Source: Octopus vulgaris
Taxonomy: Eukaryota
DNA length: 64,000 nucleotides
Direction of reading: 5' to 3'
NCBI GenBank assembly: GCA_951406725.2
Contig: OX597843.1
Span: 14,632,001-14,696,000 of the forward strand
Positions 34,029 to 34,466 of this stretch are shown here, piece after piece. Position 1 is the stretch's first letter; the number at the start of each line of letters is the position of its first letter. A program made the translations under genes and the position numbers. Below the pieces are notes generated by a model, which saw only the letters and a list, made by a program, of their open reading frames with translations, did not search any database and was not told the origin of the DNA.

Positions 34029-34466
34029 ATGGAGTGAAAGGTTGTACTTACAACTGATGAGATGGAGTGGAATGTTGTACTTACAACTGATGAGATAGAG
34101 TGGAATGTTGTACTTACAACTGATGAGATGGAGTGGAATGTTGTACTTACAACTGATGAGATGGAGTGGAATGTTGTACTTACAACTGATGAGATAGAGT
34201 GGAATGTTGTACTTACAACTGATGAGATGGAGTGGAATGTTGTACTTACAACTGATGAGATGGAGTGGAATGTTGTACTTACAACTGATGAGATGGAGTG
34301 AAATGTTGTACTTACAACTGATGAGATGGAATGAAAGGTTGTACTTACAACTGATGAGATGGAGTGAAAGGTTGTACTTACAACTGATGAGATGGAGTGG
34401 AATGTTGTACTTACAACTGATGAGATGGAGTGAAAGGTTGTACTTACAACTGATGAGATGGAGTGG
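34029..34466 (-). repeat. 33-bp minisatellite, 13 copies, each spanning the exon 3' end and 5' splice site
   Basis: Sense unit CCACTCCATCTCATCAGTT|GTAAGTACAACATT; plus-strand TACTTAC at 34045 + 33n up to 34441. Confidence 0.97.

Follow-up and report, generated by a model that had tools for sequence, protein, structure and literature searches.

The window, by which we mean the whole 64-kb stretch of Octopus vulgaris DNA analysed here, carries seven exons of a minus-strand gene that sequence comparison identifies as a GABA-A-alpha-like Cys-loop subunit gene; two further exons of this gene lie beyond the window. The seven exons are matched by protein P0002 (source name 'gamma-aminobutyric acid receptor alpha-like [Octopus vulgaris]'), which holds the domains PF02931 (167.5 bits) and PF02932 (108.1 bits), both above cut-offs. 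The best relative of P0002 with a solved structure in the PDB is human GABA-A alpha1 (E 3.7e-98), and the alignment is ungapped over the Cys-loop and loop B. The pre-M2 motif of P0002 reads SDR and not PAR, which may be reminiscent of the insect GRD group. Four of the exons, in transcript order, are needed below:

47087 to 47307, minus strand: preceding exon, encoding the loop A region (P0002 match; loose contig ends of runs X1 and X8 match the end of this exon)
34448 to 34530, minus strand: Cys-loop exon of 83 nt, encoding C-x13-C and then six residues up to a phase-1 junction (P0002 residues 149-175; spliced contigs)
33768 to 33908, minus strand: loop-B exon of 141 nt, starting inside the Phe codon of SFGY (spliced contigs; P0002 match)
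24195 to 24347, minus strand: following exon, encoding pre-M1 and M1 (P0002 match; a loose end of X1 matches the start of this exon)

The host gene resembles Cys-loop GABA-A subunits in its PF02931 and PF02932 domains, its C-x13-C motif, its six-residue spacing and the family intron position, but it differs from its GABA-A relatives by the array described below. Of 28 homologues, the pattern parsed 23, and in all 23 the distance from the second Cys to the loop-B aromatic is six residues. The aromatic residue of SFGY, a Phe whose codon is split by the intron, is the loop-B binding residue. An AlphaFold model of P0002 built from a 13-row alignment is poor (mean pLDDT 55.5, pTM 0.43); it would place the junction at the end of strand 166-175, consistent with the alignment to human alpha1.

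Several other features of the gene were recorded. The P0024 protein model quits the last exon early (12346) and resumes at 3659-3582 on the minus strand, without the last transmembrane helix, and P0001 (labelled as an O. bimaculoides isoform) skips the 153-nt exon 24195-24347 in frame, losing pre-M1 and M1. A TAA-type microsatellite of nearly 6 kb (40354-46299) takes up a large part of the intron that precedes the Cys-loop exon. Further upstream, a perfect 16-bp array of 8.4 copies (47330-47464) ends 22 nt upstream of the preceding exon's acceptor (47307), in the branch-point zone; its sense-strand unit is free of AG, so that it adds no acceptors.

At the end of the Cys-loop exon, TRF finds a minisatellite (34029-34467, period 33, 13.3 copies, 96% matches, no indels) whose first unit overlaps exon end 34448, the very base joined to 33908 in spliced contigs. 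As a repeat, this array is far beyond chance expectation. Its parts, together with the rest of the intron, are the following:

34029 to 34467, minus strand: 33-bp minisatellite of 13.3 copies, its first unit lying over the exon end (TRF)
34458 to 34465, minus strand: seed word CACTCCAT, 8 bp, exon copy, left array boundary
34442 to 34450, minus strand: donor 1 (34448/34447), the authentic 5' splice site (33908-34448 joint, skip of 539, in three of three RNA-like runs)
34437 to 34450, minus strand: inverted repeat with 6-bp arms and a 2-nt spacer on donor 1 (-3 to +11), found in every unit
34046 to 34417, minus strand: pseudo-donors 2-13 (last exon-like base 34415, 34382 ... 34052), the same as donor 1 from -3 to +8
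34029 to 34036, minus strand: 8-bp seed word, intron copy, +16 to +23 of the last donor, right array boundary
33909 to 34028, minus strand: unique rest of the intron, which holds the CAG acceptor and a pyrimidine tract

Read on the minus strand, the array presents exactly 13 AGTT/GTAAGTAC donors, the last exon-like base of each lying at 34448-33n (34448 ... 34052). The first-pass annotation had described 13 identical donors, repeated in a unit of 19 nt of exon plus 14 nt of intron. The donors are indeed identical from -3 to +8 in 13 of 13 copies, every one of them in phase 1, and the frame passes through the array without a stop; the 12 full units, however, fall into five variants (6+2+2+1+1). 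Likewise, the unit does span the junction, but the split is ambiguous (18-19 nt of exon and 14-15 nt of intron), because the 8-bp word is common to the exon end and the intron. When each of the 13 donors was spliced in silico to the acceptor 33909/33908, all 13 forms stayed open, each included unit adding 11 residues and one Cys, and the previously stated maximum of 132 residues and 12 extra Cys was reproduced. Depending on the donor chosen, the intron measures from 539 nt (donor 1) down to 143 nt (donor 13; 34051-33909), the latter value again as first given, while the exon measures 83 nt with donor 1 and 116-479 nt with later donors. If the array is collapsed, 143 nt follows as the ancestral intron length, a figure taken from this allele and not from any relative's intron. 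Retention of the whole intron shifts the frame in silico and brings a stop within the next exon.

The unit was born locally and does not derive from a dispersed repeat: a 29-nt unit pattern, with at most two mismatches allowed, gave 13 matches in the 2.8-Gb genome, all at this locus, and a control gave none. In the collapsed single-copy allele, two copies of the 8-bp word lie exactly 33 bp apart, one at each array end. This word, 10-18 nt before the donor and at +16 to +23 after it, probably seeded the first duplication via slippage or unequal exchange, after which the array would have expanded like other minisatellites of the same chromosome region. That region is prone to minisatellites: four complex arrays of at least 5 copies lie in the 64 kb of the window and four rows (three arrays) of at least 5 copies in 200 kb of flanks, against none in 200 kb taken from 20 places genome-wide. 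The long complex minisatellites of the window include those at 1738-2785 (100 bp x 10.5) and 57843-58310 (46 bp x 10.2); in the flanks, they include those at 3648-8707 of L065 (65 bp x about 78) and 6802-8846 of L070 (53 bp x 38.6). The genome-wide expectation is crude (0.2% per donor, with 150,000 donors assumed) and should be read as 'tens to a few hundred'; the 0.2% comes from 200 kb in which three arrays have 3-4 copies and none has at least 5, and two of the three look like dispersed repeats.

One run, X18, bears on whether the array might be an assembly artefact, wholly or for the greater part of its copies. X18 is a large run whose kind is not on record; it covers the intron, so it is probably DNA (76% of it was read, and records were filtered). 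One of its contigs, 49 nt long, holds two donors 33 nt apart, a string absent from the collapsed allele, and the collapsed single-copy allele has no repeated 30-mer that could cause the contig breaks seen in X18. Unless the assembly was itself made from X18, a tandem copy is thus present outside it. An artefact would accord with two further facts, that no examined record spans the whole array and that the unit variant which the window holds most often is missing from the X18 pieces examined; the five unit variants, however, are arranged in an ordered pattern, unlike a duplication error, in a window without a single N, and together with the 49-nt contig this makes an artefact most improbable. 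The copy number of 13 is nevertheless the value of this assembly. In X18, depths of 41-52 over the array vs 34.5 in the flank (the window allele predicts a 2-4-fold difference; 76% of the run, filtered records) give a weak hint of a different allele length.

Which of the 13 donors is used was read from spliced contigs. The 34448-33908 joint (skip of 539, CT..AC) occurs in all three RNA-like runs, in one contig each, from three studies bearing two organism labels; X1 and X8 represent spliced molecules, because their loose contig ends match the neighbouring exons. The contigs of the three runs (depths 3.84, 2.8 and 5.3; animals ungenotyped at the array) leave the array uncovered and show no second joint. 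This RNA sample is made up of three runs guessed to be RNA among 17 that hold 0.11-0.23 of the query words, none of them on record as RNA. Low-depth contigs drop rare variants and would miss minor isoforms; by hand calculation, the 95% upper bound on the use of other donors is about 22% if the contigs stand for some 12 independent molecules. The start of the unit was found in none of 28 homologous proteins, including eight Octopus-labelled models for which other alternative isoforms are annotated. A search with the exon-plus-array frame (word-limited, hence a weak negative) scored 8000 longer candidates, from which just the normal proteins emerged, and 5647 candidates of similar length, which yielded nothing.

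These data lend no support to the isoform ladder tuned by copy number that the first-pass annotation had put forward: three of three spliced contigs use donor 34448 only, and 0 of 28 proteins contain the unit. Its premise of escape from NMD held in silico, the in-frame forms being without a premature stop. As to its alternative, strict use of the first of identical sites, this fits the contig data, but it does not need the new explanation that had been called for, since such use is documented for repeats of this type (PMC1557585, PMC3087553).

Each unit also holds a pyrimidine-rich stretch ending in CAG/TT, two bases before the donor (34449, 34416 ... 34053, minus strand), with the same CAG/TT as the true acceptor. 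Its use as a microexon or recursive site was rejected, as it would shift the frame by 2 and no such joint is present in the three RNA-like runs. A match of the array peptide to fn3_PAP was below cut-off and was set aside.

We also considered RNA structure as a possible selector among donors. An inverted repeat whose arms measure 6 bp encloses each donor; for a pair of units, a duplex of -11.6 kcal/mol over both donors is predicted. In the predicted minimum-energy fold, units 2-3 through 12-13 are paired and donor 1 sits in a weak hairpin. For nascent-like truncated transcripts at 37 C, the predicted opening cost is 1.1-4.0 kcal/mol for donor 1 (first 40 nt) and 3.2-7.4 kcal/mol for donor 2; donor 1 would be equally masked once 50 nt follow. 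At equilibrium (span 100, 37 C), opening is predicted to cost 4.4 kcal/mol at donor 1 and 4.8-6.4 kcal/mol at the others; with differences of just 0.4-1.9 kcal/mol, self-masking was demoted as the main donor selector. The folding z-score of -3.85 was discarded as evidence because the shuffles destroy the repeat. Among 251 other GTAAGT sites in the sampled DNA, 2 have arms of 6 bp, a post-hoc coincidence of 1%. Donor 2 would lose its upstream pairing partner if U1 were already on donor 1, and inter-unit pairing may assist silencing or the growth of the array, and is not the cause. A rule by which donors spaced closer than 40 nt hinder one another in U1 binding is not relied on here. A bolder proposal would make the array a length-polymorphic splicing dial, in which pairing is strengthened by cold and in which allele length or temperature sets the use of donors 2-13; we give it very little credence. 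Were it true, in-frame, NMD-proof subunits with 11k extra residues near loop B would reduce or change the working receptor in the nervous system of the octopus.

Repeats that reiterate a splice donor have been described elsewhere. In human F7, according to Borensztajn et al. (2006, PMC1557585), the 37-bp VNTR of intron 7 has identical donors that are all functional, yet splicing in three cell lines takes only the most upstream intact donor, even after downstream sites have been strengthened. The introduction of that paper lists the minisatellites of LMNB2 and PDGF intron 4, in which only the authentic donor is used, as well as 6-16 (25 pseudo-sites) and CBS intron 13, in which the two nearest pseudo-sites are also used. 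Lancelet 'mirages' in Adh3, the globins BflGb6/BflGb9, troponin C and PGBD5 are duplications of exon-intron boundaries; they are length-variable and are reported to leave normal splicing undisturbed (PMC3087553, PMC3902484). Exon-intron boundary repeats can also give alternative transcripts in young human paralogues (PMC2812944).

The octopus array is like F7 in having a first unit over the exon-intron boundary, identical donors less than 40 nt apart and use of the most upstream one. It differs in its dimensions (33 bp, 13 donors and an exon share of 18-19 nt per unit, against 37 bp and 4 nt of exon in F7), in that its donors are all in frame and stop-free (just some in F7), in its predicted inter-unit donor pairing (the F7 authors report no specific structure) and in its host, a mollusc and not a mammal. 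LMNB2 and PDGF, as summarized there, resemble it in their reiterated donors and use of the authentic one, whereas 6-16 and CBS use the two nearest pseudo-sites, of which none was seen used in the octopus array at low contig depth. The lancelet mirages are likewise minisatellite-like boundary duplications of an invertebrate, but they belong to another phylum and to other genes, with unit lengths of 10-160 bp. Being boundary-spanning, with a reiterated donor, a local origin and main use of the first donor (at low depth), the octopus array is an exon-intron-junction minisatellite of the F7 and mirage type. Our literature search on octopus intron minisatellites and GABA-A splicing, with most subscription journals outside its scope, found no paper on this locus; other searches gave nothing closer than F7.

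A genome search for four GTAAGT at 33-nt spacing gave 156 matches, of which the first 100 listed fall into seven arrays; among the matches listed, six of the seven arrays share one unit family. The 156 are matches to the donor spacing and no count of junction arrays. The shared 33-bp unit presumably resembles the head of a dispersed repeat that is also found in the window near 36170. A family of arrays of 33-bp units with a G/GTAAGT donor consensus in each unit (L009-L016, L022-L038) occurs on several chromosomes, and one of the arrays is longer than 3 kb (C21).

Set beside these precedents, the octopus array might be leaky, with donor 1 dominating and donors 2-3 appreciably used. The resulting in-frame, NMD-escaping mRNAs would encode 11-22 additional residues, placed after strand 7 and before loop B; the subunits would probably misfold and be discarded, making this a small unselected cost and no regulated ladder. 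Such leakage would accord with the open frame, with donors that do not differ from -3 to +8, with the nearest two pseudo-sites being used in two of five human precedents (6-16 and CBS) and with the freeing of donor 2 from its partner should U1 occupy donor 1, and contigs cannot reveal minor forms. Nevertheless, no such joint was found in three of three RNA-like runs, no unit-bearing isoform is annotated among the eight Octopus-labelled models, and F7 wild type and mutants were without downstream use in 50 extra clones (PMC1557585). We consider leakage on this scale unlikely.

The open frame of the array is a coincidence that is not beyond chance. When random local sequence was placed behind a phase-1 GTAAGT start, a fraction of 0.64 of the simulations had no stop; multiplied by one third for a period that is a multiple of 3, this gives a 0.21 chance of an open in-frame array. 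The extra Cys is automatic, because the phase-1 T/GT donor consensus encodes it: at eight paralogous loci (introns inferred from the motif), the same phase-1 T/GT junction is found in eight and GTAAGT in six, and read-through would yield Cys in all eight and Cys-Lys in six. None of these eight loci (24.6 kb examined) carries an array. There is no sign of coding constraint within the units, because all four variable positions alter the would-be residue. Five of the eight paralogous Cys-loop exons (L081, L082, L084, L085 and L087) are located on C13, where related subunits may thus form a cluster.

These figures weigh on the functional version of the ladder, in which up to 13 length isoforms, in proportions set by copy number, would tune the amount of working receptor. 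Its appeal lies in the period, a stop-free multiple of 3, in the spliceable 143-nt intron that donor 13 still leaves and in the hint of a different allele from DNA run X18. Yet the prior for an open frame is already about 0.21, the Cys is a by-product of the phase-1 donor consensus, the variable unit positions change the residue in four of four cases, 23 of 23 proteins keep the same spacing where the units would be inserted, and no transcript or protein in the data examined supports it; a functional ladder is thus very improbable.

Altogether, we think it likely that the array is a real, locally born junction minisatellite in which donor 1 is dominant, the other twelve donors being likely silent, near-neutral passengers that are spliced out. 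Its unit consists of exon end plus intron start and is confined to this locus, and the mRNA, at low depth, joins donor 1 to the acceptor. Among identical and closely spaced donors the most upstream would win, being reached first and defining a short exon of 83 nt, as the F7 mutagenesis suggests; upstream-first choice was demonstrated in mammalian cells, and we infer that it carries over to a mollusc. Predicted pairing with the neighbouring unit would add to the disadvantage of later donors. With the first donor as winner, the coding sequence would be left untouched and there would be little selection to remove the array.

Were the use of downstream donors to scale with allele length, receptor dose would be governed by a polymorphic repeat; the present evidence gives no indication of this. 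A known kind of repeat, that of human F7 and of the lancelet mirages, is extended to a cephalopod neural gene, and first-donor use poses no new puzzle here, being documented for human F7. With 13 identical donors, all in frame and invisible to NMD, junction counts at this locus would measure raw positional choice of the 5' splice site in a mollusc, and such counts would be free of the decay bias that clouds F7-like cases.
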